A stretch of DNA of 64,000 bases from the IMG/VR virus record IMGVR_UViG_3300022925_000006; one strand, given 5' to 3'. The notes beneath the pieces were generated by a model. That model did no database searches, was not told where the DNA came from, and saw nothing but the letters and a program-made list of their open reading frames with translations. The position numbers and the translations under genes are program-made. The DNA comes from a virus. This document shows, in pieces, positions 3,902 through 26,700 of the stretch (the stretch's first letter is position 1; every line of letters starts with the position of its first letter).

Positions 3902-3912
3902 TTAATAATGCT

Positions 3913-3920
3913 TATAAATA
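3913..3920 (+). promoter_or_regulatory. T4-type late promoter TATAAATA
   Basis: Exact consensus in the intergenic gap. Confidence 0.8.
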
Positions 3921-3943
3921 GATAAAACAAGACGGATTTAAAA

Positions 3944-4975: not shown

Positions 4976-4979
4976 TAAG

Positions 4980-6338
4980 ATGGCAATTGTAACTCGAAAA
5001 ATTAAAAAACAAGTAATCGAATCAATCAAAACCGACATTTCGGACTCTGATACTAATTACTTTATAGCGATTGGACGTTCCGAGGATTGGAACGATTCTG
5101 ATATCGCACCAACTGTTCTAAACAGCGCAAGAGAGGAAAGAAACTTCCGTCTTGGTTTACAGTCAGTAAAAAATATTGTTGACCATTCTTTTGTTATTCC
5201 TCGTTACAACTGGGCATCTGGTGCAATATATTCTGCATATGATGATGCACAAGTTGGTTATCCTACTCAGACATACTATGTCATGAACGATAACAACCAA
5301 GTTTATATGTGTCTTCAACAAGCAAAAAACAATTCGGGTCAAGCCCAAGTATCCACGGTTCAACCAAGTGGTAATACTACAGGTACTCCGTTTGATACCG
5401 CAGATGGTTACATCTGGAAGTTCTTGTATTCTATTGGTGCCTTGGACGCAAACAAATATATCTCTGCAAATTATCTTCCTGTACAACTTATTACTGGTAC
5501 GGACTCGGATTCTCCTGCTGCTGATGTGGAACAAGAATTGGTTCAGAATGCAGCTGTTGTTGGTCAGATTATCGGTTATGTTGTTGATTCGGGTGGAACA
5601 GGATATACCTCAACACCTACAATTTCCGTCACAGGTGATGGAATAAAGGCAAAAGCTGGTGCAACGATTTCTGGTGGACAGGTTACTAGGGTAGAACTCA
5701 TCGATAGTTCTGGTAGTTACACACTTGGTAGTGGGTATAATTTTGCGGATGTTGCTGTCACTGGTGGTGGTTCACCAAGTAAACCAGCTTCAGTAAGAGC
5801 CGTTCTCTCGACACCTTTAGGTTTAGGTGCAGACCCAAGAGATGACTTACGTTCTACTGCTATTATGTTTAACGCAAAACCCGAAGGTGTTGAAGGCAAT
5901 GACTTTATTATTGGTAATGATTTCCGTCAAGTCGGTTTGATTAAGAACCTAATGGATAGTTCTGGTTCAACACTCTTTACAGAATCTACTGGTATTGCAC
6001 TCAAACAACTTAGGTTGTCTAGTGTGGTGACTGGATTTACCACAGACAATATTATTGAAGGTGGAACCTCTGGTGTACAGGCATATATTGATAAAGTAGA
6101 CTCTAACAGTATTTGGTATCACCAAACAGAAGTTACTGGATTTGGTAACTTTGATGCGGGAGAATCTATCTCAGAAATTGATGGTAATGGTACAGGTAGT
6201 CTTAACGCTACGTTTGCTCCATATATAACTCCTGAAGTTGATATTTTCAGCGGTGTGGTTTTGTATATTGACAATCGTGGGTCAGTTACTCGTAGTGCCG
6301 AACAGACCGAAGACATTAAAATCGTAATCCAAATTTAA
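4980..6338 (+). CDS. gp8: Baseplate wedge subunit gp8
   Basis: IPRYNW, YYVMNDNNQVYMCL, DGYIWKFLYSI, NDFRQVGLI and EDIKIVIQI motifs. Confidence 0.9.
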   Translation: MAIVTRKIKKQVIESIKTDISDSDTNYFIAIGRSEDWNDSDIAPTVLNSAREERNFRLGLQSVKNIVDHSFVIPRYNWASGAIYSAYDDAQVGYPTQTYYVMNDNNQVYMCLQQAKNNSGQAQVSTVQPSGNTTGTPFDTADGYIWKFLYSIGALDANKYISANYLPVQLITGTDSDSPAADVEQELVQNAAVVGQIIGYVVDSGGTGYTSTPTISVTGDGIKAKAGATISGGQVTRVELIDSSGSYTLGSGYNFADVAVTGGGSPSKPASVRAVLSTPLGLGADPRDDLRSTAIMFNAKPEGVEGNDFIIGNDFRQVGLIKNLMDSSGSTLFTESTGIALKQLRLSSVVTGFTTDNIIEGGTSGVQAYIDKVDSNSIWYHQTEVTGFGNFDAGESISEIDGNGTGSLNATFAPYITPEVDIFSGVVLYIDNRGSVTRSAEQTEDIKIVIQI

Positions 6339-6347
6339 GGTAGAGAC

Positions 6348-9300
6348 ATGCCAAAGACATTTACATCTAACGTATTTAACTCATCTTACAAGGATGATTT
6401 CAAGGATAGTGATAATTATCACCGTATCCTATTCAACAGTGGACGAGCGCTTCAAGCACGTGAACTTACACAGTTGCAAACAATCATCCAAGAAGAAATT
6501 GGTCGCTTTGGTAGGAATGTATTTACAGAAGGTGCTGCAGTAAATCCTGGCGGCCCATCTATAAACAATGATTACGAATTTATTAAACTGAATACTTCGG
6601 TTAATACTTTACCTAGTGATTTAACCACTCTGGTCGGAACAGAATTTACTGGTCAGACTTCCACTGTAAAAGCAAGAGTTCTCGAAGTTCTTGTTGCGTC
6701 AGGTTCAGACCCCGCAACCTTATATGTACAATACACCAATACCTCTGGTGCAACTGCGGGTGAAAATACTATTCGCATGGGTGCTGGTGAAGACATCTCT
6801 AATGGCACAGATACACTTACTGTACAATCAACCAACACAGTTAACAACCCTGCTGTTGGTCGAGGTTGTCAAATTTCATCTGCGGAAGGTGACTTCTTTA
6901 CTCGTGGACACTTTGTCTTTAACGGTAAACAGAGTCTAATCCTTTCCAAATACTCAAGATACCCTACTAAGGTTGTCGGTTTTAAAGTGACTGAAGATAT
7001 CGTTACTGTTACTGACACCAATACCCTGTATGATAATCAAGGTGCAACTCCTAACTTGTCTTCGCCTGGCGCAGACCGTTATCGCATCAAACTTACTCTT
7101 ACTACTAAAGACCAAATTGTTTCGGACGAAAACTTTGTTTACTACTGTGATGTAGCTGACGGGTTAATTGTCGATGAGGCAAAAGGCGAATCTAATTATA
7201 ACGCAATTAATAAACTTCTTGCGACCAGAACTGAGGAAGAATCAGGTAATTATATTGTAGAGCCATTCACGGTTGACTTTGGTGATTCTGCGAATGATTT
7301 CCTTGCTTCTGTTTCAGACGGAACCGCATATGTAAATGGTTACCGTGCTGACGCTCCAAAACCTACACCTCTAATAATCGCAAAACCAAGACAGACCGAA
7401 ACTCTAACAAACGAAGTTGCTGGTATTACTTACGGTCAATATTTTATATGTGATACGCTTGAAGGTAATCTTAACGTATCAGCATTTGCGACACTAAATT
7501 TACGTAGCACTGCATCATATGGTGGTTCTACCATTGGTACTGCAAGAGTCCGTTATGTAGAAGAAGATGGTGCGAACTATCGAGTCTACTTGTTCGACAT
7601 TAAAATGAACAGTGGTCAGTCTTTACGTAATGTTAAATCTCTTGGTACTGGTGCAGCTGATTTTGCTAACCCAATTCTTGAAAATAGTAAAGCTGTTATT
7701 AAAGAGTCAACCAAAACAACTTTGGTGTATCCTCTTCCTAATCCAAGACCAAGAACTATTAGTGACGTAGACTTTGAGGTTCAACGTATCCGTACAGGTA
7801 CATCAAGTGGTTCTGGTTCACTGACGCTTTCTTTGTCGGCAACTGGCGAAACATTTGTAAACACCTCTCAATGGATTGTCACTCGTAATGATACTGGTGC
7901 GGTGGTTTCTCCTTCTGGTATTACTGGCACAGGTACTCAGTCAACTACTATTAGTGGACTTCCAAACTCTACAGCAGTTACCGTATATCTTAAAGTTAAC
8001 AAAGCACAACCATCGGTGCGTCAAAAAACATTGGTAGAAACCACATTTAGTGGTGCAGTAGAATCCGATGGCACAGGAACTAAATTTGTTAATCTACACG
8101 CAACAGATGTATATGATGTATTATCAATCAAACAAACGGATTCTAGTGGTTCGGATATTTCTTATCTGTTTACTGTTGACGATGGTCAACGTGCTGGTTT
8201 CTATGATAATGCACGTCTAGTACTTGAGGGTGGCGCTACTGCTCCAGCTGGTTCGGTGTTTACAAGATTCAAACACTTTACCCACGGTGCAGGTGATTAC
8301 TTCGCAGTAAACTCTTACACGGGTCAGGTTGCTTACGAAAATATTCCTAACTTTCAGATTGGCCCTCGTAGTTCAATCAATCTACGTGATGTGATTGACT
8401 TCCGTTCATCGGTTGATTCTGACGGACTATTTGCTGGCGGTGACGCTGCATTTAACGAAATACCTACTAACGGTGACATCTTCCAAGGTGACGTAGAATA
8501 CTATGTTCCTCGTGCAGATAAAATTGTTATTACCACACAAGGTGATATAAAGAACATTAAAGGTGAACCTGGCTTTACTTCACAAGTACCCTTTACTCCC
8601 GAAAATACATTGCCCCTCTTTGAATTAGAACTTAACCCATATGGTCTAAGTGACTCAGATATCGTTGTAACTCCGATTGAAGCAAAACGTTTCACGATGA
8701 AAGATATCTCACAGATTGAGAAAAGAATTGATAAACTAGAAGAAGTTACTTCACTATCTCTTCTTGAAGTCGATACATCGGCTCTGTTGGTTCTTGATTC
8801 TTCGGGTAACCCTAGAAGTAAATCTGGATTCTTTGTTGATAACTTCAAAGATAGAAGTTTCTCGGATGCACAGAACTCTGAGTATCGTGCTGCGATTGAC
8901 CCATCTAGAAACTTCTTAGCACCACAAACAATTGAAGATAATGTCGGACTTATCTATGATAGTGCGCTTTCAAGCAATACTATCTTGAAAGGCGATACCA
9001 TTTTCCTTAATTATGCACATAAAGAAGCAATCACTCAACCAGTTGTTTCTGGTACTGAGAATGTTAACCCATTTGCGGTTATTACTGGAGAGGGTAATAT
9101 TACTCTTTCTCCCGCTTCGGATGAATGGCAACAGACAAAATATAAACCAGCGAACGTAATTAACAAGACTGCGGAAGAAGACCTTGGTACAATTAACGAA
9201 GGTAACCTTGCGGTAGGAACGGCAGTAAGAAGAGGCGTAGCTAACGAATTCGTATGGAGTGGTCGCCCATTTGCACCTATCGGTGGATTTGGATTTATGC

Positions 9301-11549
9301 AACTTCCAATCTTCAATGGTTGGAGAGGTGTTGCTGATTGGAACTGGCGTGGTGTACCACTTGCTACAAACAGACAGTCAGACGGTGTTGCTAGAGGTGG
9401 TGTTACAACTAACAGAGACCGTGCAGGAACCACAACGACCCGTTCATTTTCGCAACGTGTTGTTGTTGGAACAAGAACTGTTCGTAAAGTAGTTGGTGAT
9501 AAAACAGTATCTCTGACATTCTTACCATTTATCCGTTCACGTAAAGTGTTCTTCCGTGCAGAAGGACTCCGACCTAATACACAATTCTTCCCATTCTTTG
9601 ATGGTAAACTAGTATCGAATTTCTGTCGTGAAGAGTCTTTCGAAAGATTTTCGTTAGGTGGAACTTCAGGAATCTATTATGGTAACAGATTCCGCAATTC
9701 TAGTTCGCACCCACAGGGTTCGAGTAACTTAGAATCAAATGCAAATGGTGTGATTGAAGGTTCATTCTTCATCCCATCTTCAACTACTAATCGTTTCCGT
9801 ACAGGTACTCGTGAGTTTAAACTACTTGATATCAGTATCAACAATGATGCAGCTGCATTGTCTCATGCATCAATTAACTATGTTGCACAAGGTACATTAG
9901 ATACAAGACAGAAGACCATTACCTCTACTCGTATCACTCAGAAGAGAACCCGTAAGTGGACAGAAACTACTCGTGTCCGTAACCGTGACCCACTTGCTCA
10001 GTCATTTACTGTCACAAAACCTTCAGGTATGTTTGTAACTAAAGTTCAGTGTTACTTTAAGAGTAAGGATTCCAGTGTTCCTGTTGAACTACAGATTCGT
10101 CCTATGGTCAATGGTGTCCCGTCTGCAACTGATATTATCGGTAATGCGATTAAATTCCTGTCACCGTCACAAGTTAACTTACCAGCATCACAGACACAGG
10201 CTGCGGTACTTGCCGCTCCTACTACGTTTGAGTTTGATGAACCAATCTATCTGAATCCCGAAACGGATTATGCAATTGTTCTACTTGCGGAGTCGGTTGA
10301 GTATGAAGCCTATGTTGCTGAGACCTATGCGTTTGAACTAGGTTCTACCGAGAAACGTGTATCACGACAACCTTCAATGGGTTCACTCTTCAAGTCACAA
10401 AATGGTAAGACTTGGGAACCAGACCAAACAAAAGACTTGTCGTTCAAGATTTTCCAAGCAGAGTTTGATACTGCTGGAGGTTATGCGATATTTGAGAACC
10501 GTGACGTAGAAGATGAGGTTTTAGAAAACAATCCATTCTTCATGAACAATGCGGACGCAACCGTTACTATGTTGTTCCCAAATCATGGTTATGATGTTAA
10601 TGATACAGTAACTATTGCTGGATTGGATAGTGCAACAACTTATAACGGTATTCTTGGAACTAGTCTCCTTGGTAGCCGAACAGTTACCGCAATTGATGGA
10701 TTTGGTCTAAGATTTGAAGCTGATAGTGCTGCAACATCTTCGGGTAGATTTGGTGGAACAGATATCATAGTTGACCAACAAGTTCAATTTGATATTGCAA
10801 CACCAAACTTTACCACAATGCAACCAGACGATACAAGTTTATCCTTTGGTGCTAAGTTTACTACAGGTAAATCTCTGGCAGCTGTTGCTGGTCAACAGAC
10901 TCGTTATCAGAAAGATGCGACATATAGTGCCGATATTGTGGTGGGTGAAGAGAACTTCTTTACTGCACCAAGACTTGTTGCGAAAGCCTCAAATGAAACT
11001 ACGGAACTGGGTTCTGGTGTTCGTTCAACAACCTTTAAGATTGATATGGGAACGGTTCGTTCGGATGTATCTCCTGTTATTGATGCACAAAGAGCGTCTC
11101 TTACTACCACGTCAAACTTGATTGATAATCAAGTCTCATCTGCTGCTAATGGATATAATGTTCCATTAACATATACGGACGAGACAACACCGTTTGGCGG
11201 TTCCGCTTTGGCTAAACATATCACCTCGGTGAATGAACTTGAAGCAGATGCTGTTGGTATGAAAGTACTGGTATCTGCACTAAGACCATCTAATGCTGAC
11301 TTTGATTTATATTTCAGAGTTGCGAATGATGGTGAAAATATCTTTGATAAGGATTGGACACTTCAATCAACAGAAACAACTATTGCACCAGACCCTAATA
11401 ACTATCGTGAATATCGTTACTTGATTGGTGGTGATGGTGGTGATGTTGACCCGTTCACTCAATATCAATTTAAAATTGTGATGCGTTCAAATAACTCATC
11501 TAAGATTCCTGTCTTCAAAGACTTCCGAGCAATTGCGTTGGCAGTATAA
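6348..11549 (+). CDS. Large virion structural protein (DUF4815/VrlC-like)
   Basis: YHRILFNSGRALQARELTQLQTI, PGADRY, RFTMKDI, KSGFFVDNF and DPLAQSF motifs typical of marine T4-like phages. Confidence 0.85.
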   Translation: MPKTFTSNVFNSSYKDDFKDSDNYHRILFNSGRALQARELTQLQTIIQEEIGRFGRNVFTEGAAVNPGGPSINNDYEFIKLNTSVNTLPSDLTTLVGTEFTGQTSTVKARVLEVLVASGSDPATLYVQYTNTSGATAGENTIRMGAGEDISNGTDTLTVQSTNTVNNPAVGRGCQISSAEGDFFTRGHFVFNGKQSLILSKYSRYPTKVVGFKVTEDIVTVTDTNTLYDNQGATPNLSSPGADRYRIKLTLTTKDQIVSDENFVYYCDVADGLIVDEAKGESNYNAINKLLATRTEEESGNYIVEPFTVDFGDSANDFLASVSDGTAYVNGYRADAPKPTPLIIAKPRQTETLTNEVAGITYGQYFICDTLEGNLNVSAFATLNLRSTASYGGSTIGTARVRYVEEDGANYRVYLFDIKMNSGQSLRNVKSLGTGAADFANPILENSKAVIKESTKTTLVYPLPNPRPRTISDVDFEVQRIRTGTSSGSGSLTLSLSATGETFVNTSQWIVTRNDTGAVVSPSGITGTGTQSTTISGLPNSTAVTVYLKVNKAQPSVRQKTLVETTFSGAVESDGTGTKFVNLHATDVYDVLSIKQTDSSGSDISYLFTVDDGQRAGFYDNARLVLEGGATAPAGSVFTRFKHFTHGAGDYFAVNSYTGQVAYENIPNFQIGPRSSINLRDVIDFRSSVDSDGLFAGGDAAFNEIPTNGDIFQGDVEYYVPRADKIVITTQGDIKNIKGEPGFTSQVPFTPENTLPLFELELNPYGLSDSDIVVTPIEAKRFTMKDISQIEKRIDKLEEVTSLSLLEVDTSALLVLDSSGNPRSKSGFFVDNFKDRSFSDAQNSEYRAAIDPSRNFLAPQTIEDNVGLIYDSALSSNTILKGDTIFLNYAHKEAITQPVVSGTENVNPFAVITGEGNITLSPASDEWQQTKYKPANVINKTAEEDLGTINEGNLAVGTAVRRGVANEFVWSGRPFAPIGGFGFMQLPIFNGWRGVADWNWRGVPLATNRQSDGVARGGVTTNRDRAGTTTTRSFSQRVVVGTRTVRKVVGDKTVSLTFLPFIRSRKVFFRAEGLRPNTQFFPFFDGKLVSNFCREESFERFSLGGTSGIYYGNRFRNSSSHPQGSSNLESNANGVIEGSFFIPSSTTNRFRTGTREFKLLDISINNDAAALSHASINYVAQGTLDTRQKTITSTRITQKRTRKWTETTRVRNRDPLAQSFTVTKPSGMFVTKVQCYFKSKDSSVPVELQIRPMVNGVPSATDIIGNAIKFLSPSQVNLPASQTQAAVLAAPTTFEFDEPIYLNPETDYAIVLLAESVEYEAYVAETYAFELGSTEKRVSRQPSMGSLFKSQNGKTWEPDQTKDLSFKIFQAEFDTAGGYAIFENRDVEDEVLENNPFFMNNADATVTMLFPNHGYDVNDTVTIAGLDSATTYNGILGTSLLGSRTVTAIDGFGLRFEADSAATSSGRFGGTDIIVDQQVQFDIATPNFTTMQPDDTSLSFGAKFTTGKSLAAVAGQQTRYQKDATYSADIVVGEENFFTAPRLVAKASNETTELGSGVRSTTFKIDMGTVRSDVSPVIDAQRASLTTTSNLIDNQVSSAANGYNVPLTYTDETTPFGGSALAKHITSVNELEADAVGMKVLVSALRPSNADFDLYFRVANDGENIFDKDWTLQSTETTIAPDPNNYREYRYLIGGDGGDVDPFTQYQFKIVMRSNNSSKIPVFKDFRAIALAV

Positions 11550-13253: not shown

Positions 13254-15824
13254 ATGACTGTTCCAGTAAAACTAAAAGACAGTGCTAGTGCCGATTTTGT
13301 TCAGTTCTCATCGACAGAAGAAAATTATTTAGCATACCAAGCGGGTCTACACCTTGCGTCTGGAGATAGTTCAGACGTAGGTTCTCTTGCGTTCAATATT
13401 CATGGGGTTGTTAATACAATCGGTTCCGTGGTTGATACGTCATATGACTCTGCTGTAGGAACAGGCGGTGATGGTTCGTTCTTATCATTCACCACAACTA
13501 CGACTCCGATTAGACAAACCAAAGGAACCATTACTCCTGCTGGAAGTAATAACCGTCTTCCCGTGATGCAGAGGGACAGTGACGGACAAAGAGTTATTCG
13601 TGAGATGAATGATTCTGATGTGAGTGCATTACTCGATAGAGTCGGTTCACGTATCTTTACATCTGACTATCCTGGCTCATATAAACTTTCAACATCAACT
13701 CCGTCTGGTGGATATTCGACAGTCTTATCAAATGTAACGACTGATACTAGAACTGATGGAACATCTATACAATATAATCTGTATAGAAGAACTTCAATGA
13801 CACCACCAACTAAAGTGTTGCCATTTTCTATCAAACGTTCTAGTGGTGATACTGGTACATATCAAGGTCTTCAGTTAATGACTGACGACCAAGTCAAATA
13901 TTCTATTGGTACTCGTTTACAAAACAAGATTGCGGGTACTGATAATTCTGTAGGTTCATATAAGATTTACAGTGCTTCTGCTGGTACTCCAACCAACAAT
14001 GGTTTGTCTGGTACATGGCAATCTAAAGGTACTGCAACAGATACTCGTCAAGATATTGTTGATGCAAACTATACTAGAGGACGTGTATCTACTTACTCTC
14101 GTCTAAGAGAATCTACTTATAGTGCTGCATATAACAGAACAAGAAGTAGTTCCTATGCTAGTACTAATGATGTTACTCGTACCAGTACATACTCAGCAAC
14201 ATATTCCCTACCAAGAACTAGTTCATTCACCACTAATGGTTTCATAGGAAACTACATTGGTAATTATCAAAGAACAACGAGTGGAGTTTATACTCGAAGT
14301 CGTCTGGCTACTCTCGATTATGCTGGTGATTATGTAGGTAACTTTGTAGGTAACTATTCTCGTTTATTAGGATTTACTGGTAACTATTCAGGTGTGGGCG
14401 GAAACTTTCTTAGAGATTCTACCAGAGTATCGACATATGGTAGAACCTCTACTAATACTTTTGTTGGTAATTATAATCGAAGTGTAACTTACCTCGGTAA
14501 TTATACTGGCAATTTCTTGGGCGAATACACTCGTGATAGTCAAAGAGTCCCAGCAGTTGACTTTACTGGCAACTTTGTTGGTAACTATTCACGTAACTTC
14601 CTTCGTACTCGTAATTCTAATTATCAAAGAAACACTTTAATAGACTCTACTAGAACGTCTACCAGAGATTCTCAAAGAACTGATATCGGCAACTTTACTG
14701 GTGATTTCACTGGTAACTATTCACGTAACTTTTCTGGCGCATTTACTAGAAACTCTTTGGACGAAATGGCCTATGTTACTGTTTACTCACGAGGTACAGT
14801 AAAGGCTGGTGACATTACATACTATACTGGTAACTATCTAGGCACCAATCAATATGTTAGACATAGTGTTACGGCAACTGGTACAAGTAGTGCATACTAT
14901 TACAGTAAAGTGAGTCTTGATTATATTTCCAGTGGTGATATATTCTGGCAAGTCCCGATTGCTGATGGTGATAACATTAACACTAAAATATTTAGAGTAT
15001 ACTGGGGAACAAGCGTATTGCCATCTCCTGGCCAAGTAGCGGTTGCTCTAGCTTATTATGACCCCAATGCCGATGGTAACGTATTGACAAGCGGGTTTAA
15101 TCTGACTTATGCTCAGTATGAATTGATAACTGGTTATTATGACCCAGATACTGCAAGTACTGTGGTTCCGACATACGAAGCCTTTATGACAGCGAGTTTA
15201 CTAGATTTTCATACAATGTTGTCGAAGATTACCCGAATAAAGGATGATGCGGATGGATATGAGTATGAAAAAGGAGACTTTCAAGCACTTGATGGTGATG
15301 GTGGACTGGACGGCCAGTTAGATAATGCTCTTTATTCTGTAAGAAGAAGAACACTGACATCTTATGTCGGTAACTTTAGTGGTAACTTCCTTGGTAATTA
15401 CTCCAGAAACTTTGCAAGGGATTTTCTCAGAAACAGTACTAGAACTTCTACTACTAACTTCCTTGGTAACTTTATTGGTGATTTCCTTGGAAACTTTGTT
15501 GGCGACTTTACGGGTGATTATCAAAGAAGTTTTATTGGTGAGTATAGTAGAAACTATCAACGTACTCGTGTGACAGTCTATACTGGACTTGATGGATTCA
15601 CAAATAACTATCTTGGTAACTATATTGGTAATTTCAGTCGAAACTTCACAACAACCTTTATAGGTAACTATTCCAGAAACTTTGTGGGTAATTACATTGG
15701 TAACTATGCACGTAACTTCATTGGAAACTACAATCGAACATTCACAGGCAACTACGCAGGTGCCACTATAGGGGCTACGAATTCAACCATTGAGACTTAT
15801 ACTCTCTATGTAAGAACAGCATAA
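13254..15824 (+). CDS. Tetrapeptide-repeat virion protein A (branched self-complementary hairpin with a globular insert)
   Basis: [FY]xG[ND], YxR[NT] and Rx[ST]x 4-mers; N-terminal ~270 aa and C-terminal YTLYxRTA shared with the next gene. Confidence 0.7.
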   Translation: MTVPVKLKDSASADFVQFSSTEENYLAYQAGLHLASGDSSDVGSLAFNIHGVVNTIGSVVDTSYDSAVGTGGDGSFLSFTTTTTPIRQTKGTITPAGSNNRLPVMQRDSDGQRVIREMNDSDVSALLDRVGSRIFTSDYPGSYKLSTSTPSGGYSTVLSNVTTDTRTDGTSIQYNLYRRTSMTPPTKVLPFSIKRSSGDTGTYQGLQLMTDDQVKYSIGTRLQNKIAGTDNSVGSYKIYSASAGTPTNNGLSGTWQSKGTATDTRQDIVDANYTRGRVSTYSRLRESTYSAAYNRTRSSSYASTNDVTRTSTYSATYSLPRTSSFTTNGFIGNYIGNYQRTTSGVYTRSRLATLDYAGDYVGNFVGNYSRLLGFTGNYSGVGGNFLRDSTRVSTYGRTSTNTFVGNYNRSVTYLGNYTGNFLGEYTRDSQRVPAVDFTGNFVGNYSRNFLRTRNSNYQRNTLIDSTRTSTRDSQRTDIGNFTGDFTGNYSRNFSGAFTRNSLDEMAYVTVYSRGTVKAGDITYYTGNYLGTNQYVRHSVTATGTSSAYYYSKVSLDYISSGDIFWQVPIADGDNINTKIFRVYWGTSVLPSPGQVAVALAYYDPNADGNVLTSGFNLTYAQYELITGYYDPDTASTVVPTYEAFMTASLLDFHTMLSKITRIKDDADGYEYEKGDFQALDGDGGLDGQLDNALYSVRRRTLTSYVGNFSGNFLGNYSRNFARDFLRNSTRTSTTNFLGNFIGDFLGNFVGDFTGDYQRSFIGEYSRNYQRTRVTVYTGLDGFTNNYLGNYIGNFSRNFTTTFIGNYSRNFVGNYIGNYARNFIGNYNRTFTGNYAGATIGATNSTIETYTLYVRTA

Positions 15825-15834
15825 ATAGGTTGAT

Positions 15835-18408
15835 ATGGGAACTACAACACTAAAACTTGAAGGCACCAATGGTGACCTCAAGGAGATAACAACCGCAGAA
15901 GAGAACTACCTTGCGTATCAGGCAGGGTTGCATCTGTCTGCGTTGGATTCTAGTGATGTCGCAACATTAACTCAAGTCAGTACCAGTAATACCCTAATCG
16001 GTACATTTACTGATACTACATTTGATGATGCGCCTGGCACACATGGATTTGCGGGTGGTACTGTTCCTGTTACACAAACAACAACTTCTTTATATCAAAG
16101 AGAAGGTGTCGCTGATTTCTCAGGAGATTCAGCTTCAGCTGCATTTCGATACCCCACAGAGTTTGTTGACAACGGTGGAACACCAGAAGTTCACGAACTG
16201 GATTCGGCTGAAGTAGATACCCTTGCCGACAGACTTACTTCTCGTATCGTAACATCCGAATATCCAGGCACATATCGACTGGGTTCGTCCTCGCCTGGCG
16301 GAACATATTCCGTATATAAAGCAGGCGTGTTTTCGGATAGACTACAAACAGGCACTTCGGGTACAGCCTACAATCTGTATGTGAAGTCCTCGATGACTCC
16401 ACCAACTACAGTAAGACCAGTATCCATTAAAAGGTCTAGTGGTCTGACAGGTTCGTTCCAAGGCATCCAAGAAATGAGTGATGCCCAGATACGATACACT
16501 TTTGGTTCAAGAGTCCAAAGTCGTGTCATGAATGGAAGTGGTGGAGTAGGCACATATCAATTAAGAAGTAATGTTCAAGGCGCTCCTACTGATACAGGGA
16601 CATGGTCTACCAGAGGAACTGCAACAGATACTCGTTATGCCTTGGTCAATACGGATTACTCTGCAACGTATCTAAGAAATAGTACACTAGATTCTACCCG
16701 AAATAGTACTAGAGACCGTTCAGCTGCAACAGATTATGTCGGTAATTACACTCGAAACTTCACTGCAAATTTCCTTGGGGAATATGTCGGTGATTTCACG
16801 GGCAACTTCATAGGCGACTTTACAGGCGATTATCAAAGAAGTTTTATTGGTAACTTTGTAGGTAACTATAGTAGAGACTTCATTGGTGATTATACGGGTA
16901 ACTATTCTAGAAGTTTCCTTGGTAACTATATTGGCAACTATGCTCGTGCATATTCCGCTGTATATTCAAGAACTCGTGTAACAACATATACTGGTAACTT
17001 TATCGGTAATTATGTTGGTAACTATGCTCGTAATTTCTCGGCTGCATACACAAGAGACCGAGTAACCAATTTTATCGGAGATTTTACTGGTAACTTTATT
17101 GGTAACTATGCACGTAACTTTTCTGCCAACTATCAAAGAACTAGAGCCACCAATTTTATAGGTAACTTCCTTGGTGATTATACTGGTAACTATGCTCGTG
17201 CATATGCTGCTGCTTATACTAGAAACAGAGTTGCAACCTTTACGGGTGACTTTGTAGGTAACTACACAGGTAACTTTGTAGGTAACTATGCAAGAACCAG
17301 AGCAACTAATTACCAAAGAACTCGTACAACTAACTATGCTCGTAACTTTGCTGCTGCTTATACTAGAAACAGGCTTGCAACCTTTACGGGTAACTTTGCA
17401 GGTAACTATGTAGGTAACTTCCTTGGCGACTATGTAGGTAACTTTGTAGGAAACTATGCAAGAACTCGTACAACCAACTTTCTTGGTGGTGGTAAAAGTG
17501 GTGATTTATATGCCTACACAGGTAACTTTGTAGGTAACTATTCAAGAACACGTGCAACTAATTACCAAAGAACTCGTGTTACTACATATTCAAGAACTCG
17601 TGTAACAAATTATGTAGCAGATTATGTCGGTAACTATACTGGTAACTATGCTCGTAACTACCTCGGCAACTTCCTTGGTGATTATGTAGGTAACTTTGTA
17701 GGTAACTATGCAAGAACTCGTGCTACTGCATACGCAAGGACTAGGATAACAAATTATGTAGCAGATTATGCTGGTAATTATACTGGTAACTATGCTCGTA
17801 ACTTTAGTGCAAACTATCAGAGAACTAGGGCGACTACCTACACTGGTAACTTCCTTGGTGATTATACTGGTAACTATGCTCGTACATATACTATTGATTC
17901 TACCCGAAATTCGACCAACACTTTTGCTGGCAACTTCGTTGGTGATTTTACGGGTAACTATGCTAGAAACTTTAGTGCTGATTATCAGAGAGACACTCTC
18001 ACCGATTTTGTTGGTGACTTTCTTGGCGAGTACACAGGCAACTATTCTAGAAGTTTCACTGCGGATTATCAGAGAACTCGTGTTTCAATATACTCAGCTG
18101 TATACTCTAGAACAAGAACATCTATATACAGCGCAGACTATCAACGAACACGTAACTCTAATTACACCAGAAATTCAACTAGGGATTCGTTAAGAAATTC
18201 TGTTGCGACCTTTACAAGAACTTCTGTTGTTGTTCGTTCAAGTGCATACAGTAGAACAAGAACCAGTGTGACTACCTTTACAGGTGATTTTACAGGTAAC
18301 TTTGTGGGCGACTTCACTGGTAACTATGTCGGTAACTATGTTGGAACAACCATTGATTCTGGAACTTCCACCATTACTACCTACACCCTGTACCAGAGAA
18401 CCGCATAA
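15835..18408 (+). CDS. Tetrapeptide-repeat virion protein B (single long self-complementary hairpin)
   Basis: Paralog of the previous gene (EENYLAYQAGLHL, GTATDTR); ~560 aa of 4-mer repeats around a central FLGGGKSGDLYA turn. Confidence 0.7.
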   Translation: MGTTTLKLEGTNGDLKEITTAEENYLAYQAGLHLSALDSSDVATLTQVSTSNTLIGTFTDTTFDDAPGTHGFAGGTVPVTQTTTSLYQREGVADFSGDSASAAFRYPTEFVDNGGTPEVHELDSAEVDTLADRLTSRIVTSEYPGTYRLGSSSPGGTYSVYKAGVFSDRLQTGTSGTAYNLYVKSSMTPPTTVRPVSIKRSSGLTGSFQGIQEMSDAQIRYTFGSRVQSRVMNGSGGVGTYQLRSNVQGAPTDTGTWSTRGTATDTRYALVNTDYSATYLRNSTLDSTRNSTRDRSAATDYVGNYTRNFTANFLGEYVGDFTGNFIGDFTGDYQRSFIGNFVGNYSRDFIGDYTGNYSRSFLGNYIGNYARAYSAVYSRTRVTTYTGNFIGNYVGNYARNFSAAYTRDRVTNFIGDFTGNFIGNYARNFSANYQRTRATNFIGNFLGDYTGNYARAYAAAYTRNRVATFTGDFVGNYTGNFVGNYARTRATNYQRTRTTNYARNFAAAYTRNRLATFTGNFAGNYVGNFLGDYVGNFVGNYARTRTTNFLGGGKSGDLYAYTGNFVGNYSRTRATNYQRTRVTTYSRTRVTNYVADYVGNYTGNYARNYLGNFLGDYVGNFVGNYARTRATAYARTRITNYVADYAGNYTGNYARNFSANYQRTRATTYTGNFLGDYTGNYARTYTIDSTRNSTNTFAGNFVGDFTGNYARNFSADYQRDTLTDFVGDFLGEYTGNYSRSFTADYQRTRVSIYSAVYSRTRTSIYSADYQRTRNSNYTRNSTRDSLRNSVATFTRTSVVVRSSAYSRTRTSVTTFTGDFTGNFVGDFTGNYVGNYVGTTIDSGTSTITTYTLYQRTA

Positions 18409-18447: not shown

Positions 18448-18897
18448 ATGGCAAGAACATGGTTAGACAACGCATTCTGGGAAACTCCCAAAAAACAAAT
18501 ATTGAATGCAATAAGTGAGGAAGAAATTGATAATCGCCAGATTCGTCAAGTTCATAAACTCAATAAACTAAATGATGATGGCACAGAGAACGAACTATTC
18601 ACTGAAGTTATGACCTTCCTTGGTGAAGAAAAGATTGATGCGTCAAGTAAAAAGCGTCTGGAAAAGAAACAGTCTGAGGCTGAACTTGAAAAACAAAAGG
18701 CGCTTGAACATGAACGTGCAAAGAAACTAGAGAAACTCTTTGAGTATAAACTAGAGACCTTTGAGATTGATGAAATTAAAGGTTCGAAGAATCGTTTATT
18801 AAAATCTAAACTGAGACGTTCCAAGTCGATTCCTGAAGTGAATCTATATGCTATGATGATTGTGAAGGAAACTCTCGATGACGAACACACCAAGTAA
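18448..18897 (+). CDS. Hypothetical charged helical protein (possible fibre chaperone)
   Basis: 149 aa, K/E-rich, GGAG SD; directly after the repeat proteins. Confidence 0.55.
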   Translation: MARTWLDNAFWETPKKQILNAISEEEIDNRQIRQVHKLNKLNDDGTENELFTEVMTFLGEEKIDASSKKRLEKKQSEAELEKQKALEHERAKKLEKLFEYKLETFEIDEIKGSKNRLLKSKLRRSKSIPEVNLYAMMIVKETLDDEHTK

Positions 18898-19627
18898 AGG
18901 TTTTGTAATTGTTGCGTCCAGAAATCAAAACTTCTATACGTATGCAGTTAACTTAATCGAATCAATCAAAGATTGGTATCCCGAAGCAAAAATCTGTCTT
19001 GTCACCGAACAACGTTTTATTGATGAACGTGCAGATGAAGCTGACCAAGTAATCTTTTGTACTGACCACTACCGTGCAAAACTATGGGGTATGTCTCAGA
19101 CTCCCTATGATGTAACAATGTATGTCGATGCAGACATGGATTGTGAACATGAAGATATCGCAAAGGTATGGGATGAGATGAAGGACTATGATATGGTCTT
19201 TCATGCATTGACCCCCGAACGTGAAAAGTACTATGCGATTCGTGAATTTAAATATGGTGATGGTATAGAGAAGTTTACTCTATGTGGGGGCGTGTGTCTA
19301 TATAGAAGTGGCAATCCTCTGGTTCGTGAGTTTATGGAAGACTGGTTTGAGTTGTTCAATAAACAACATAGTGGAATGTGGAAACCAAAAGGATTTGACA
19401 ACCAACAGTTTGATAGAGACCTTAAACATTTTGACCAGACAACTCTTTGGTGGTTAACAGAAAAAGAAGAAAAATATAAAGACCTCAAGATTGGTATTTT
19501 CCAAGATGACATTCGATGGAATTATTTTACCCAATATGCATATGAAGGTCTAAAGTCTATTGAAGGTAAACCACCTATCCTTAGACACTATTCTGGTTCA
19601 CTCCAGAAGGATAAGCTTATAGTATGA
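18878..19627 (+). CDS. GT-A fold glycosyltransferase (GT8-like)
   Basis: GFVIVA...NLIESIK, TPYDVTMYVDAD (DxD), GGVCLY, FDQ and C-terminal ILRHY motifs. Confidence 0.8.
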   Translation: MTNTPSKGFVIVASRNQNFYTYAVNLIESIKDWYPEAKICLVTEQRFIDERADEADQVIFCTDHYRAKLWGMSQTPYDVTMYVDADMDCEHEDIAKVWDEMKDYDMVFHALTPEREKYYAIREFKYGDGIEKFTLCGGVCLYRSGNPLVREFMEDWFELFNKQHSGMWKPKGFDNQQFDRDLKHFDQTTLWWLTEKEEKYKDLKIGIFQDDIRWNYFTQYAYEGLKSIEGKPPILRHYSGSLQKDKLIV

Positions 19628-20295
19628 AAGATATTCCGATAAAAAATCCTGAAGTACTAGAGGTTCTAAATAAATTCTTATGGTTTTATGACAACAAGGA
19701 TATTGTTGCAAAAAATCTAAGGGTTCATTCTGATGCAAATAAAAGGTCTCATTTTGTCGGTGAAAAATATCGTGACGAAATTATTGCAATGGATGACAGA
19801 CATGAAGGATTTCCCGATGAATGTCGTGGATATGGATTGAAGACTGACCGAATTCATACCGTTGATAGAGCAGACAACAGTGAAGTCGCTAGTATAGTTA
19901 AACAATACGGTAAGTTTAATCAAGAGTTATGTCAGTTACTATCAAGTCGGAATAATGCATTAGCACAATTATATCCGCCTGGCGGTTACATATCATGGCA
20001 CAATAATGCAAACGCATCTGCATACAATATTATTTTCTCTTGGTCAGAAACAGGAGAAGGTAACTTCAAGTATGTTGATGGTCATACAGGTGATACTGTT
20101 GTCATGCAAGATGTAAAAGGATGGCAGTGTAAAGCAGGATACTTTGGTGCATATGGGGAACCTTGGTACAATAGGGTCTATCATGCAGCCGAAACTGACT
20201 GTTGGAGACTTACTATATCATACATCTTTGACCGCAGCGACATGTCCCTTGGAATTCAAGATGATGTTATTGAGGAAATAATGTCAGAATTCTAG
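19624..20295 (+). CDS. 2OG-Fe(II) oxygenase/cupin-like protein
   Basis: YPPGGYISWHNN...YHAA...WRLTIS, a double-stranded beta-helix pattern with HxN...H...R. Confidence 0.65.
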   Translation: MKDIPIKNPEVLEVLNKFLWFYDNKDIVAKNLRVHSDANKRSHFVGEKYRDEIIAMDDRHEGFPDECRGYGLKTDRIHTVDRADNSEVASIVKQYGKFNQELCQLLSSRNNALAQLYPPGGYISWHNNANASAYNIIFSWSETGEGNFKYVDGHTGDTVVMQDVKGWQCKAGYFGAYGEPWYNRVYHAAETDCWRLTISYIFDRSDMSLGIQDDVIEEIMSEF

Positions 20296-20316
20296 TCCGT
20301 TAGACGTTGGAATCCT

Positions 20317-20324
20317 TATAAATA
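20317..20324 (+). promoter_or_regulatory. T4-type late promoter TATAAATA
   Basis: Exact consensus, intergenic. Confidence 0.8.
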
Positions 20325-20362
20325 AAGACAAGAAGAAATTGTTTTTACATGGGTATTCTACG

Positions 20363-20728
20363 ATGACACCAAATTACGAAGATATCACTATCCTACAAGG
20401 AACAGATGTAGCGATTGAAATACATCTGATTCACGATAGTGGTAGCGCTTTCAATTTGACCAATAGGTCGATTGAAGCCAAAATGAAAAGAAATTACGCC
20501 GACTCTGCGGATGACCCTGACACGGTGGCATTTAATTCGGTCGTAATAAATCCCCCCGAAGACGGCATCATCAATCTCTCATTAACAAATACACAAACCG
20601 ATGCACTGAAGACTCGTGGCAGATACGTCTATGACGTGGAAATATCATTCACAGACAGTGATTCGAATACAATAATCCAGAGAGTCCTTGAAGGACAGAT
20701 TGAAGTATCGCCTTCGGTCACCAAATAA
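20363..20728 (+). CDS. Small virion protein (BppU-N-like fibre adaptor)
   Basis: ITILQGTD...GIINLSLTNTQT...GRYVYDVEI...RVLEGQIEVSP; ATG at 20363 preferred over TTG at 20339. Confidence 0.65.
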   Translation: MTPNYEDITILQGTDVAIEIHLIHDSGSAFNLTNRSIEAKMKRNYADSADDPDTVAFNSVVINPPEDGIINLSLTNTQTDALKTRGRYVYDVEISFTDSDSNTIIQRVLEGQIEVSPSVTK

Positions 20729-20741
20729 AGGGAAAGTATAG

Positions 20742-23700
20742 ATGTCTGAAAAGATTTACATAAAGAAAATTGTAGTCGGAACACCCGTCAAAAAAGTGAC
20801 GGCTGGTGCCTTCTCTATTGATAATATATCTGGTGTCGTAACGGATAATATTCCAGAATCCGATGGTGCAATTTTTGCCTATAAGTCGTCAACAGGAAAA
20901 TACGAACTTGCTAATTTCATAAACGGTAGTAACATTACCGCTACCTATGATAGTGGTTTAAATAATTTTAGGTTTGACTTTACTGGTGGACAATATACTG
21001 GAAATCTTATTCCAGACAGCGACTCAATTCGTGACCTTGGTAGTCAAGATAACAAATGGCGTGACCTTTATCTTTCTGGTCAGACAATTACTCTCGGCAC
21101 ACTACAACTAAAAGACAGTGATGGTGAGTTTATTATTGTTGATGAGGTTAGTAATAAAACTTCGTTAAAGATTTCTCTTAGTAGTAACAATACCGATATT
21201 CTGAGTTTCAATGCCGAAACTGGTAACTTCATCTTTAGTGATTCGGATATTGCAAGAACGGATATTAACGACACATTCCATCAAGGTGTAACGGTAGTTA
21301 ATGGTGCGACTATTGATTCCGCAACAGTTACCAATCTTGCAAGTACAAACTTTACTGGTTCTCAGGCCACATTAGACAGTGCAAACATAAATGAACTGAG
21401 AGTATTGGGTAATACTGTTCTAGAAGGCAATCTTACTGTAACAGGCACAGAAACGACTGTCAACACCGAAACAATTAATCTTGCAGACAATACGATTGTT
21501 CTAAACTCGAATGCAACAGGAACACCAACAGAAAATGCGGGTATTGAAATTGAACGTGGTGACCTTGCTAACGTCTCATTTATATGGGATGAGGGTAATC
21601 AATATTGGACACTGGCTGACAAAACTCTAGAGACAACTGGTAAGATTCTTTTCGGAAACGTTTACTCTACCGAAGGTGACCTTCCGGCCGCATCATTGTA
21701 TCACGGTATGTATGCTCACGTCCATGCAACAGGTCGTGGATACTTCGCACACGCAGGTGACTGGCACAAACTGATTGATTCAGATACCACTACTTTACAA
21801 CAAGTTTATAATTTAACATCTAATAACGCTTCTATTGTTCAAGCAAATGTTACTACTGCGGACATTGTTAATTTAAATCCGACAAACACAATTGGTACGA
21901 ACGCAACCTATGATAGTGCTGCGATTCGAACACTAACATTTACCACCCTCACTAACACAACAAGTGATATTACTGAGGGTGGTAATCTCTATTATACTCG
22001 TGCAAGATTTGATTCTGCCTTGGGTGACGCAACATCGATTGCAAGTATCCGTAGTTACTTTGCAGCTTCAGGCGACTTGTCATATAATTCATCCACGGGT
22101 GTGTTTGAATTTGATGTAGAACAAGTATATACTAAAACAAACTTTGATAGTGACCTTGGTGCTGCCCTTGATGGTGGAACAGGTATCACTTATGATTCTG
22201 CTACAGACACAATTTCTATTACTGATACAGGGGTTGCTGCAGGAACCTATGGTTCTGCAAGTCAGATTCCAGTATTCACAGTAAACGCACAGGGTCAACT
22301 TGATAGTGCGGGTACAGTTGCGGTTGCAGGCGTAACCTCGTTTGCTTTTGATTCTTCTAATGGTAATCTTACTATCGGAACTGCCGATGGTGCCTCGTTT
22401 GTCACTACTGCAACACTTGACCCATATACAACAACCAATTTAGTTGAAGGTAGTAACCTCTATTATACTCGTGCGAGATTTGATTCTGCATTGGGTGACA
22501 CTACATCTACACAAACAATCCGTGGAATGTTTAGTTCTGGCGGAGACTTGACTTATGATTCTGCGACAGGTAACTTTACCTTCGATGTAGAACAGGTTTA
22601 TACCAAGTCTAACTTTGATTCTGATTTAGGTGCTGCCCTTGATGGTGGTACGGGAATCACGTATGATAGTTCAACTGATACAATTTCTATTACTGACACT
22701 GGTGTTGTCGCAGGTACATATGGTTCTGCAACACAAATTCCAGTATTTACTGTCAATGCACAAGGTCAGTTAGATAGTGCAGGTAGTGTAGCTGTTGCGG
22801 GTGTATCATCCTTCTCGTTTGATTCCGCAAATGGAAATATCTCTATTGGTACTGTCGATGGTAACACTTTCCTCACAACTATTACCCTTGACCCATATAC
22901 AACTACAGATTTAACTGAAGGGACAAATCTCTATTATACAACTGTTCGTGCGGACTCTGACTTTGATGTTAGACTTGCTACGAAAACAACAGATGATGTC
23001 ACAGAAGGGACTAATCTCTATTATACCACTGCAAGATGGGATGCTCAACTTGCTACGAAAACAACAGGCGATGTAACCGAAGGGTCAAATCTTTACTATA
23101 CCACTGCTCGTGCAGATAGTGATGCAAAGAATTCTGTATCAGTCACCGATGCGGGTGGAGATGGTTCGTTAAGTTATAATGCGGGTACTGGTGTAATTAC
23201 ATATACTGGGCCGAGTTCATCTGAGGTGAGAGCGCACTTTAGTGCGACAGGTGACCTATCCTACGATTCTTCTACTGGTGTATTTTCAATTGATGTTGAG
23301 AACGTATACTCTCAAGCAAACTTTGATAGTGACTTCTTAACTAGACTGACATCACAAATTGATAGTGCAGGTATCACTACACTTACGACTACTAACGGCA
23401 CAATTACTAATATTATATCCGATAGTGCGAGTATTGGCAACCTTTCTTTCACAAATCTTGCAAACACTACTTCAGATATTACTGAAGGGTCTAATCTTTA
23501 CTATACGACAGTAAGAAGTGATTCGGACTTTGATGTTCGTCTTGCAACTAAGTCTACCACAAACCTTGTAGAAGGTTCTAATTTATACTATACATTAGCA
23601 CGTGACGATAGTGCGTTTGATGTTAGATTTGCGATTAAATCTACAACAGACTTGACAGAAGGGACTAATTTATATTATACTACTGCTCGTCAGAACACAG

Positions 23701-26700
23701 ACTTTGACACCAGATTAGGTACAAAGTCTACCTCAGATGTTTCTGAAGGAACGAATCTTTATTACGTAAAATCTCGTGTAGATAGTGATATTGATTCTAA
23801 GTTCACTGCAAACTCTACGTCAGACTTATCAGAAGGGTCTAACCTCTATTATACTACTGCAAGAGCAGACAGTGATGCAAAAGCGTCTCTCTTAGTCAAT
23901 GACGCAGGTGGTGATGGTTCACTTACCTACGATAGTGGTACTGGTGTATTTACCTATACGGGGCCAAGTGCGACAGAAGTAAGAGCGCATTTCAATGGTG
24001 GTTCTGGTGTTACTATCAATGCAGGTGGAACGATTTCTATTGGTCAACCTGTAGGAACTACCGATGACGTAGTATTCGGTAAATCAACTATTGACTCTGC
24101 GGTTGTTGATGGAATTAACTTTAATGTTCTTACATCAAGACATTCAAATGCTGCTGGAACAGTATTCTTTGACTCAGACCACCAAAAAGGTCTGTCTGTT
24201 GTCATGGACACTCAGAACAATCCAAATCCTGATGTAACTCTTAACCTTGGTCAAGAGATATTCTTATATGTCCATAACTTAACTGGCGCTCAGATTAACA
24301 ACGGTGATGCAGTATACATCTCTGGAACTGCACACGGTAAACACCCACAAGTATCTCTTGCTCGTGCGGATATGTCGTCAACAGGTAATCCTTCTGGTCT
24401 TGCGACTATGGACATTCCAGATGGCGCTCACGGTTGGGTAACAAGATACGGTATTGTCCGTGATGTAAACACTGGTAGTTTTGCTGAAGGTTCTACACTA
24501 TATCTTTCCGCTGATTCCGCAGGTAAGTGGACATCAACCGAAGTTACTGTAGATACTGGATATCCTTTCCATATTGGTCAGGTTCTGACTGCTGACTCTA
24601 ATGTTGGTACAATCCTTGTAGACGGATTTAGTGAACACTTTGAGTATCTGCGTATTGAAGATAGACTGAAAGTCTCAGGTAGACTTGAAGCTGACTCTGC
24701 GTCACTTCTGAATGTTCAATTTAATACTACACTGTTTGATTCACATCAACCGTATAGTGAAGGTCTGTTGTATTATGATAATGCACACAAGACTCTGAAC
24801 TATAATGATGACATCACTGGTATGGTTCACGAAATTGGTATTCAAGAACACCAACGTGTTTATAATAATAGTGGTGCAACCATTAAGAAAGGTAATGCAC
24901 TATACTTTAGTGGTAACTACCTATCAGGTGATATTGATGTTCCGACTATTGGTCTTGCAGACGCAACGGACGTAAACGCATATAACGCTCAAGGTATTGC
25001 TGCCCAAGATATTGCAAACAACTCTTATGGTCACTGTTTGATTGCTGGTCAATTAACCGAAGTTGATACCTCACACTTGAGTGACGGTTCAAACTTCTTC
25101 GTATCCGTGACTACGCCTGGGTCTCACCAAAACGCATCTCCGACATATCCAAACTTCCCTATGTGTTTGGGTTGGGTTGTTAAGGCTGGTGATTCAGATA
25201 ATGGTATCTTACTTGTCAATCAACAGAACCACTCGGTTAACTCATTCCGTGTAAGAACTTCTGCACACATTGGTACAGACTTACAGGTTGACGGTAACTT
25301 AACGATTTTAGGTAGTCAGACCACTGTAGGTACATCTAATGTAACTCAGGGTTCTCCAATCTATCGTCTTAATGAAGGTGATGCGATTGGTGAAGCAGGA
25401 ACAGTCTTTACTGGTACTGGTCTTGACGATGCCTTCTTTGCAGGTCACTTTACAGGAACTTCTTCACAAACTTACTATGTAAGAATTGATGGTGTAGGAA
25501 CTGGTGCAGGTGGTGTAGATACCTTTGCTGTTGCACTTGGTAACGATAGTGCGTTTACTTCACCAGTTTTAATTAAACAGAATATTACTGGTGAACCACA
25601 ACTTATTCACTCTGCCGATAATATCTCGGTTGATTTTGGTGCGACTACAGGTCACGATAGTGGTGATAGATGGGCTGGTACTGCATCTCCTGTTAATGTA
25701 GATACTGGTTTCTTCACAAACCGAAATACTGGCACAAGTGGTGTCGGTTATACCCATATGGGTCTATGGTTTGATGTCACTGACGAGAAGTGGAAAATCA
25801 TTGATGAGTATGACTCAACACCTACAGGAACAATTAATGCTGCCGACTCTTCGTTCAGTCTTGCAACTCTAGTTGCAAATACGTTTGAAGGTAATCTGAT
25901 TGGTGCGGTAACAGGTAATGCTCAAACCGCTTCTGCTCTTGCAACTGGTCGTAACTTCTCCTTAACAGGTGATATTACTGCAAGTGCGGTATCCTTTGAC
26001 GGAACAGGTAACGTAACACTTACAACTGCATACAATCCAGGCAGTATCGTAAACGCAGATATCAATGCAACTGCAAATATCGCTGATAGTAAACTCGCAA
26101 CCATTACTACTGCGGGTAAGGTAAACAACTCTGCAACGACCGCTACAAGTGCAAATACTGCTTCTGCAATTATTGCTCGTGATGCAAGTGGTAACTTTGC
26201 GGGGGGTACATTCACTGGTGAAGTGAATCGTGACGCACAGACTACAGTAACCGCTGGAACATATGGTTCTGCAACTGCAATCCCTGTAATAACAGTTGAT
26301 GCAAATGGTTTTGTAGATAGTATGGGAACAATCGGTGTATCAGGTATTACTGGTGTAGACTTTAATAATTCAGACGGAACACTTACTATCAATACAAGTG
26401 GTAGTGACTTCTCTGATGTCCTTACCCTTGACCCATTCACTACTGCGGACTTGACAGAGAATACTAATCTCTATCACACAACCGCAAGAGTAAGAAGTGC
26501 CATTAGTGTAGATTCTGGCAGTGACTTGTCATACAACTCAACTACTGGTGTAATATCATTTACTGAATCGGATAGAAGTCCTGCTGATATTAGAGGATTA
26601 TTCTCCGCAGGTGGTGATTTAAGTTATAACGATAGTACTGGACAATTCTCATTCACCGATTCTGCACAACATACAAGTGCAGAGATTCGTGCAATGTTCT

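Follow-up and report, generated by a model that had tools for sequence, protein, structure and literature searches.

Mirror-symmetric tetrapeptide arms in a predicted structural protein of a putative marine T4-like phage

Out-and-back chains and the product of gene B

Chains that run out and back are known from the antiparallel coiled coils of SMC/Rad50 and from the helical hairpin of colicin Ia, where they form a long stalk with a functional domain at its far end; the two arms must match in length, and they are alpha-helical with heptad packing. The perforin-2 P2 domain carries an extended beta-hairpin, and the Gp38 adhesin of S16/T2-type phages has a polyglycine-II helix sandwich made of short segments. 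Among phage fibres, we take PDB entry 2XGF to be the needle of T4 gp37. The D10 domain of T4 gp37 consists of residues 811–881 and 1010–1026 with the needle inserted between them, and within the needle a strand glycine (G921) makes room for an aromatic residue (F970) of the neighbouring chain (PMC6957217). Here we describe gene B, which lies at 15835–18408 (+ strand) of a 64,000-nucleotide (nt) stretch of the virus record IMGVR_UViG_3300022925_000006; this whole stretch is called the window, and all positions refer to it. The region 16657–18348, in which a preliminary description had noticed a self-complementary repeat, falls within this single open reading frame of 857 amino acids (aa). We propose, with a probability of roughly 0.7, that B encodes a structural protein of a marine T4-like myophage in which the third hairpin of a triplicated base domain is extended into a fold-back stalk whose register is set by a steric code.

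By topology only, the gp37 needle (D10–D11, long tail fibre tip) appears to be the closest analogue of B. As in gp37, the B chain leaves its base, returns antiparallel and completes the base with its C-terminal strand, judging from AlphaFold2 models of B and of a 420-aa homologue, P0125, and from an hhalign comparison of the base modules. The C-terminal ends are similar (…NYIVRLA in gp37 and …TLYQRTA in B), and strand glycines would leave space for aromatic residues, as in that phage fibre. Unlike gp37, which has arms of ~60 residues, HxH iron sites and no tetrapeptide repeat or unit-level code, B has coded arms of ~282 residues without any His; and gp37 exists only as a trimer, collar included, whereas the base of B is a triplicated single chain. 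The comparison of the family alignment with gp37 residues 800–1026 in hhalign returned a probability of 0.2%, indicating no homology. In contrast to the arms of SMC/Rad50 and colicin Ia, those of B repeat every 4 residues, lack helix formers and alternate between aromatic and small side chains, a pattern in keeping with beta strands. Gp38, compared by description only, is a phage receptor-binding protein with a tightly packed repeat that depends on Gly, but it has no mirror-coded long arms; it did not turn up in the fold searches, an absence that does not exclude likeness.

The preliminary description knew of no phage fibre with a code of this kind, and we likewise found none in the literature searched, which yielded no description of such a tetrapeptide repeat or code, nor in Pfam, PHROGs or the PDB. 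No Pfam family scored above threshold (the only hit, DUF3334, reached 22.9 bits against a cut-off of 25.2), and nothing in PHROGs did so, the only hit being phrog_22557, a family of unknown function that matched the repeat at E = 8.8e-5. Searches of PDB sequences with phmmer and hmmsearch gave no match (E ≤ 1 or E ≤ 10), and Foldseek gave none against the PDB at E ≤ 0.001. Foldseek also returned nothing from BFVD at E ≤ 0.001, but here the query was the full-length model of B and the result is thus uninformative. A feature search of the ESM Atlas with the arms produced no usable match.

The mirror code of the two arms

Protein B is composed of a base domain (residues 1–270; 15835–16644) of three homologous ~90-aa modules, each a helix plus a beta-hairpin; an N-arm (residues 271–552; 16645–17490); a turn, FLGGGKSGDLYA (residues 549–560; 17479–17514); a C-arm (residues 557–838; 17503–18348); and a C-terminal return strand, …TYTLYQRTA (residues 839–857; 18349–18405), which completes base module 3; all of these lie on the + strand. 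The arms are written in tetrapeptide units, many of them of a glycine type ([FY]xG[NDE], hereafter G units), and the turn, which holds the mirror centre at residues 554–556, is the sole interruption of the repeat. Aromatic residues keep to position 1 of the four-residue unit from residue 301 to residue 812, with no phase break even across the turn, and the unit phase shifts by 2 at residue 813. Over the 568 residues of the arms (16645–18348) there is no Cys, His, Met, Pro or Trp, and there are one Lys and two Glu; Thr, Asn, Tyr, Arg, Gly, Ala and Phe make up three quarters of the composition, and the net charge is about +30, with 61 Arg against 30 Asp.

To analyse the pairing, units were classed as G type ([FYW]xGx) or non-G and mirrored about every possible centre. 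With the centre placed on GKSG (553–556), the 63 unit pairs comprise 0 G:G, 51 G:non-G and 12 non-G:non-G pairs, against ~9.7 G:G pairs expected by chance. When the turn pair FLGG:DLYA is left out, 62 pairs remain (50 G:non-G and 12 non-G:non-G). The N-arm then contributes 31 G units, and the C-arm between the turn and residue 812 contributes 19, each of the latter opposite a non-G unit of the N-arm; this recount agrees with the hand alignment of the preliminary description. Scoring all registers against block-shuffled controls, which had been put forward as a check, identified GKSG as the unique optimum: no other centre with comparable overlap gives 0 G:G, and the observed score was matched by 0/5000 unit shuffles and 0/5000 run-length shuffles, each shuffle being allowed its own best register and the run-length shuffles keeping every run length. 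The mirror centre coincides with the only non-repeat interruption, which is also the midpoint between the end of the base domain and the C-terminal strand.

The mirror continues past the regular part of the repeat. The 6-mers RSAATD (295–300) and RTSVTT (809–814), already remarked on as a mirrored break, face each other, so that the sum of the residue numbers of facing partners, i+j = 1109, is kept down to the base. Below them, STRD, STRN, STLD, YLRN and YSAT stand opposite FTGD, FTGN, FVGD, FTGN and YVGN, the first two pairs being those with which pairing had been said to go on towards the base, and six further [FY]xG units of the C-arm (815–838) each face a non-G unit of the N-arm. A residue-level scan of 268–838 gave 0 G:G and 228 exclusive positions in 284 pairs. 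The mirror observation in B is thereby confirmed as real and far beyond chance.

Periodicity alone can imitate the headline statistic. Both arms consist in part of copies of an 84-nt (28-residue) module, GGG-R-A-R-T in unit types, and a perfect period-7 pattern (GGGnnnn) also scores 0 G:G at 2/7 of the mirror phases, which counts against taking that score at face value. Both observations favour a tailspike-like parallel beta-solenoid with ~28 residues (7 units) per turn, in which the mirror would be a by-product of a module that is palindromic in G and non-G units. Because a perfectly periodic 7-unit repeat would give the same score, the proof rests on the irregular runs. G runs vary from 1 to 6 units and non-G runs from 1 to 19, and they are still matched across the mirror, six G against six non-G and four against four, with the run of 19 non-G units opposite the beginning of the N-arm, which is rich in G units. 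Taken by itself, the irregular core (24 pairs at a fixed register) has 20 exclusive pairs and 0 G:G, with p about 0.02. The best parallel offset (71% exclusive, 3 G:G) is poorer than the mirror (81%, 0 G:G), and two homologues without a 7-unit period, P0091 and P0036 (11–13 non-G units facing 12–13 G units), follow the same mirror, as described below. A solenoid also leaves unexplained the equal arm lengths found around tip inserts. The sequence statistics thus make this alternative, which the preliminary description had itself raised, quite improbable. The specific recurring partners on which that description had laid weight are present (FLGD:YQRT four times, RxAT:YVAD, and pairs of the YARN:YARN type), but their recurrence does not represent independent events because they are copies of one 84-nt module.

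At the residue level, the partner of each residue was tabulated for each i+j, and registers with at least 150 residue pairs were compared for G:G. At i+j = 1110 there is no G:G, which is unique among these registers. At i+j = 1112, 56/57 Arg stand opposite Phe, Tyr or Gly with no R:R, while the next best register reaches 46/56. Odd sums give diffuse partners. Sharp optima at 1110 and 1112 are the pattern expected if direct and diagonal neighbours share one face of an antiparallel ribbon. On such a ribbon, both arms would turn positions 1 and 3 of their units, with the aromatic, Arg and Gly residues, to a common face at a roughly constant bulk per rung, and positions 2 and 4 (Thr/Val/Ile/Ala and Asn/Asp/Thr) would make up the other face. 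Arg–Asp contacts, which had been suggested earlier, are not borne out, as Arg faces Gly, Phe and Tyr at both 1110 and 1112 and Asp/Asn fall on the other face. Mutual information between paired-unit positions in 31 homologues was diffuse and does not fix the strand register.

Each arm also contains a tandem 144-nt duplication. In the N-arm the copies lie at 17187–17330 and 17331–17474 (+ strand; residues ~452–499 and 500–547, 78% identity), and in the C-arm at 17514–17657 and 17658–17801 (+ strand; residues ~561–608 and 609–656, 76% identity); under i+j = 1109 the two duplications are mirror images of each other to within one residue. The N-arm copies differ by a two-unit switch, YART RATN in copy 1 against YVGN FVGN in copy 2, and exactly the two facing C-arm units are switched oppositely, YVGN FVGN in copy 2 against YSRT RATN in copy 1. 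This paired two-unit switch is equivalent, in a protein, to a compensatory base change. The family would be one of the rare cases in which compensatory evolution, long the classic proof for RNA structures, can be brought to bear on a protein.

Base domain, homologues and the fold-back model

AlphaFold2 modelled residues 1–280 and 833–857 of B with high confidence, the predicted local distance difference test (pLDDT) score being mostly >85 in the base domain. In this model the strand 833–855 (pLDDT 93–96) lies beside the strand 257–277, with end-to-end sums of 1110–1112, and in the model of P0125 the paired strands reach 256–286 and 386–418, with an additional small hairpin at the tip. The secondary structure of the base recurs three times as two short strands, a helix and a long hairpin. 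Profile comparison by hhalign aligned module 2 with module 3 at E = 3.6e-6 and module 1 with module 2 at E = 9e-5; BLASTP found no match between the modules, and the triplication is detected by profile comparison only. A short loop joins the two hairpin strands in each of modules 1 and 2, the return strands being SLYQRE and YNLYVK. The equivalent return strand of module 3 is the C-terminus, YTLYQR, which is homologous to the other two, and in the family alignment T849, Y850, T851, Y853 and R855 are invariant. Since module 3 takes its return strand from the C-terminus, the 568-residue repeat region extends the third hairpin of the triplicated base domain, and the homology of the return strands fixes the out-and-back topology independently of the code. 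The earlier claim that the C-terminus returns to the N-terminal domain therefore holds on two counts, the strand at pLDDT >90 beside 257–277 and the module homology.

The base domain itself may resemble the C-terminal beta-prisms of MACPF/perforin-like proteins and MABP, which are pseudo-threefold, though the structural similarity is weak and, unlike B, none of those proteins has a repeat arm. The best matches in VIA-align were 8b6v, 2qp2, 3tow and 6sb1, over 114–122 residues with a root-mean-square deviation of 3.6–6.0 Å and 6–10% identity, at Z scores of 5.1–7.1, a range that the tool calls common for unrelated models. A shape search of the ESM Atlas returned only unnamed viral clusters, which matched the base domain.

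A constant i+j would be met equally well if the arms paired between chains, either in a swapped dimer or trimer or in three hairpins bundled as a six-stranded, gp37-like needle, with the code describing how the chains pack about a symmetry axis. A buried interface of this kind would agree with the side-chain bulk on one face, which is roughly constant from rung to rung, phage fibres are usually trimers, and in the gp37 needle glycine packs against the Phe of a neighbouring chain (PMC6957217). On the other side, the base of B already forms a complete pseudo-threefold unit in one chain, and the module 3 hairpin closes intramolecularly in both models. The turn is only ~12 residues long, and the globular domains of relatives sit exactly there. 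We consider pairing between chains unlikely and retain pairing within one chain.

At 90% clustering, 134 homologues of the N-terminal 275 residues were obtained, and at 50% identity 343 clusters. They all come from metagenomes, carry no Pfam domain and range in length from ~400 to >2000 aa; all complete members terminate in …ETYTLYVRTA. For each, an anchored register was predicted by adding the protein length to the position at which the GTATDTR motif ends and subtracting a constant, glycine not being used in the prediction. In an unbiased scan, the best register fell within 10 residues of the anchor-predicted one in 29% of 113 homologues, compared with 3.2% of run-shuffled controls. With the predicted register fixed, 35/116 homologues reached p ≤ 0.05 (5.8 expected), 11 of them at the floor of 0.005, and the anchored register recurs in homologues of 420–1370 aa. 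P0091 has 11 non-G units at its start opposite 12 G units at its end, obeying the anchored mirror, and the alternating blocks of P0036 (13, 4, 4, 4…) match exactly across it. The close relatives P0003–P0006 (51–69% identical, 546–1043 aa) all have 0 G:G at the predicted register, so that their large differences in length are shared equally by the two arms. Relatives carry globular domains exactly at the turn, and among 36 homologues with a single insert the arms are equal within 12 aa in 36%, against 12% by permutation.

These data also bear on a view of the arms as an unpaired, flexible low-complexity linker whose mirror symmetry is a relic of repeat expansion. The strongly biased composition would fit a linker, as would the outcome of AlphaFold2 and ESMFold2, neither of which yields a confident arm fold. 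However, a neutral relic would not hold the anchored register across homologues at 40–70% identity with quite different runs, and it explains neither the compensatory switch inside the duplicated segments nor the near-perfect rule for Arg partners at a single register. We give an unpaired linker very little chance. A constraint that keeps the two arms antiparallel and in register, from the N-terminal domain outward and back to it, is well supported by four independent kinds of evidence; the unique register, the homologues, the duplications, the base strands and the module homology all speak for it.

Several further findings weigh against the proposed stalk. The arms of B are modelled at a pLDDT of ~30 with no secondary structure, and residues 282–389 of P0125 at <50, so that the i+j diagonal looked for in predicted structures is present at the base strands and the arms stay at low confidence in both proteins. 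About two thirds of the homologues fit no single mirror register, and in many single-insert homologues the arms differ by >100 residues; the simple hairpin is thus not universal in the family. In paralogue A, a search for local stem pairing reached a top score of 46 against a run-shuffled null mean of 50, which is not significant. The place of B in the virion is presumed from gene position only, and we know of no structural precedent for a free two-stranded ribbon of ~280 rungs.

In the fold-back model, the base would be a single chain of three homologous helix-plus-hairpin modules, with some 568 residues of tetrapeptide repeats added to the third hairpin. From there the chain would run outward for ~282 residues, turn at GGGKSGD and come back antiparallel and in register, until TYTLYQRTA re-enters the base. 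The register would be set sterically, by a code on a single face of the ribbon: in each rung one [FY]xG[ND] unit would be faced by a unit whose position 3 is Arg, Ala, Thr or Ser, and Arg would pack against Gly or an aromatic residue (Phe or Tyr). A change of length in one arm, or a switch of units, would survive only if the other arm mirrored it. The outcome would be a long basic stalk (~+30), most likely a fibre or spacer for host contact, as relatives carry globular domains at the stalk tip. Beta structure along the whole arm, its length, the packing and the function are what we infer for this stalk; a length of ~90 nm assumes a fully extended ribbon. Of the antiparallel beta-ribbon in the preliminary description, the antiparallel and in-register arrangement has stood, and the extended ~90-nm ribbon or virion needle remains a prediction, with an arm pLDDT of ~30.

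A bolder version is possible but doubtful. Here a single polypeptide would form a free-standing two-stranded beta ribbon of ~280 rungs (~90 nm) with a tetrapeptide pairing code to define its register, each rung holding one Gly unit and Arg lying against aromatic or Gly, and would evolve by mirrored insertions and compensatory switches as the protein counterpart of an RNA stem, extendable in relatives to branched forms with several tip domains. If the arms pair as the code implies, they would supply natural, evolvable rules by which very long beta ribbons can be built with their length and register specified, something that protein design has for coiled coils but lacks for beta structure. The fold-back stalk, if correct, would also represent a new architecture for phage host recognition, with a single-chain pseudo-trimeric base and a stalk with swappable tip domains, in a family that sits in abundant uncultured marine T4-like phages.

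Homologues that fit no single register, members with unequal arms, paralogue A and a relative in Phage C48C1 may be branched forms. Paralogue A (856 aa; 13254–15824, + strand) lies directly upstream of B, has a base domain and a C-terminal strand as in B, and is 37% identical to B in the family alignment. It carries a globular insert of ~150–170 aa (about residues 530–697, no Pfam match), several phase shifts of the repeat and unequal arms (about 284 and 142 residues). Local pairing in A was no better than in shuffled controls and so does not confirm a branched-stem reading. The relative in Phage C48C1 (WJE88074.1; L001 7980–18023) is 3347 aa long and combines very long repeat stretches and at least six globular inserts with a single base domain and a single C-terminal strand, TYTLYVRVA. 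Its segment 'RHRSYLYYSTDTSTNQQFFEPRVDDMTHSS…' is duplicated, and the units between the inserts follow a period of 3 (G, G, R), which is impossible for a two-strand mirror rule. The 422-aa homologue P0183 uses another repeat vocabulary, with NF[LGS]GVR[ND]V octads in its N-arm and NFTGPQPQ octads in its C-arm, which suggests that other pairing codes may occur in the family.

Genes around B

From its sequence, the window would belong to an uncultured marine T4-like myophage of the C48C1/Melnitz/HTVC008M group. It is assigned to this group because its major head protein is closest to those phages, the nearest match being Phage C48C1 (70%), followed by Methylophilales phage Melnitz and Pelagibacter phage HTVC008M at ~61%. 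The genes are ordered as baseplate wedge, a giant structural protein with fibre-like genes, A and B, a 2147-aa fibre protein, and then neck, terminase, sheath, tube, portal and major head, which places B amid fibre genes flanked by baseplate-wedge and neck genes. The baseplate-wedge genes occupy 1077–6338. They are followed at 6348–11549 by a gene for a 1733-aa protein that matches phrog_358/877, of unknown function; its placement between a gp8-like wedge gene and the fibre genes is conserved, and the counterparts in the loci of relatives carry PF16075 (DUF4815).

Downstream of B, four small genes (149, 249, 223 and 129 aa) lie at 18448–20728 (+ strand). They recur in the same order 3' of the hairpin gene in two distant metagenomic relatives, whose N-domains are 47% and 41% identical to that of B, and their products share 34–66% identity. 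None of the four proteins matched a Pfam family above threshold, the best hit being that of the 249-aa protein to Glycos_transf_2 (E = 0.18). In PHROGs, phrog_1084 and a tail-fibre-assembly family match the 129-aa protein. A role of the four genes in fibre maturation is possible.

The 2147-aa fibre protein is encoded at 20742–27185. Matches obtained by tblastn to a 'structural protein' of S-RIM2 were rejected as homologues of B, since they reflect shared composition with a (V/L)TGN run that lacks aromatics. This 1912-aa structural protein of S-RIM2 (L002 1417–7155) bears the (V/L)TGN tetrapeptide run, again free of aromatic residues. The 2147-aa fibre protein contains many copies of a motif like TEGSNLYYTTARADSD, which recurs as TEGTNLYYTDARADARIAA in the same S-RIM2 protein.

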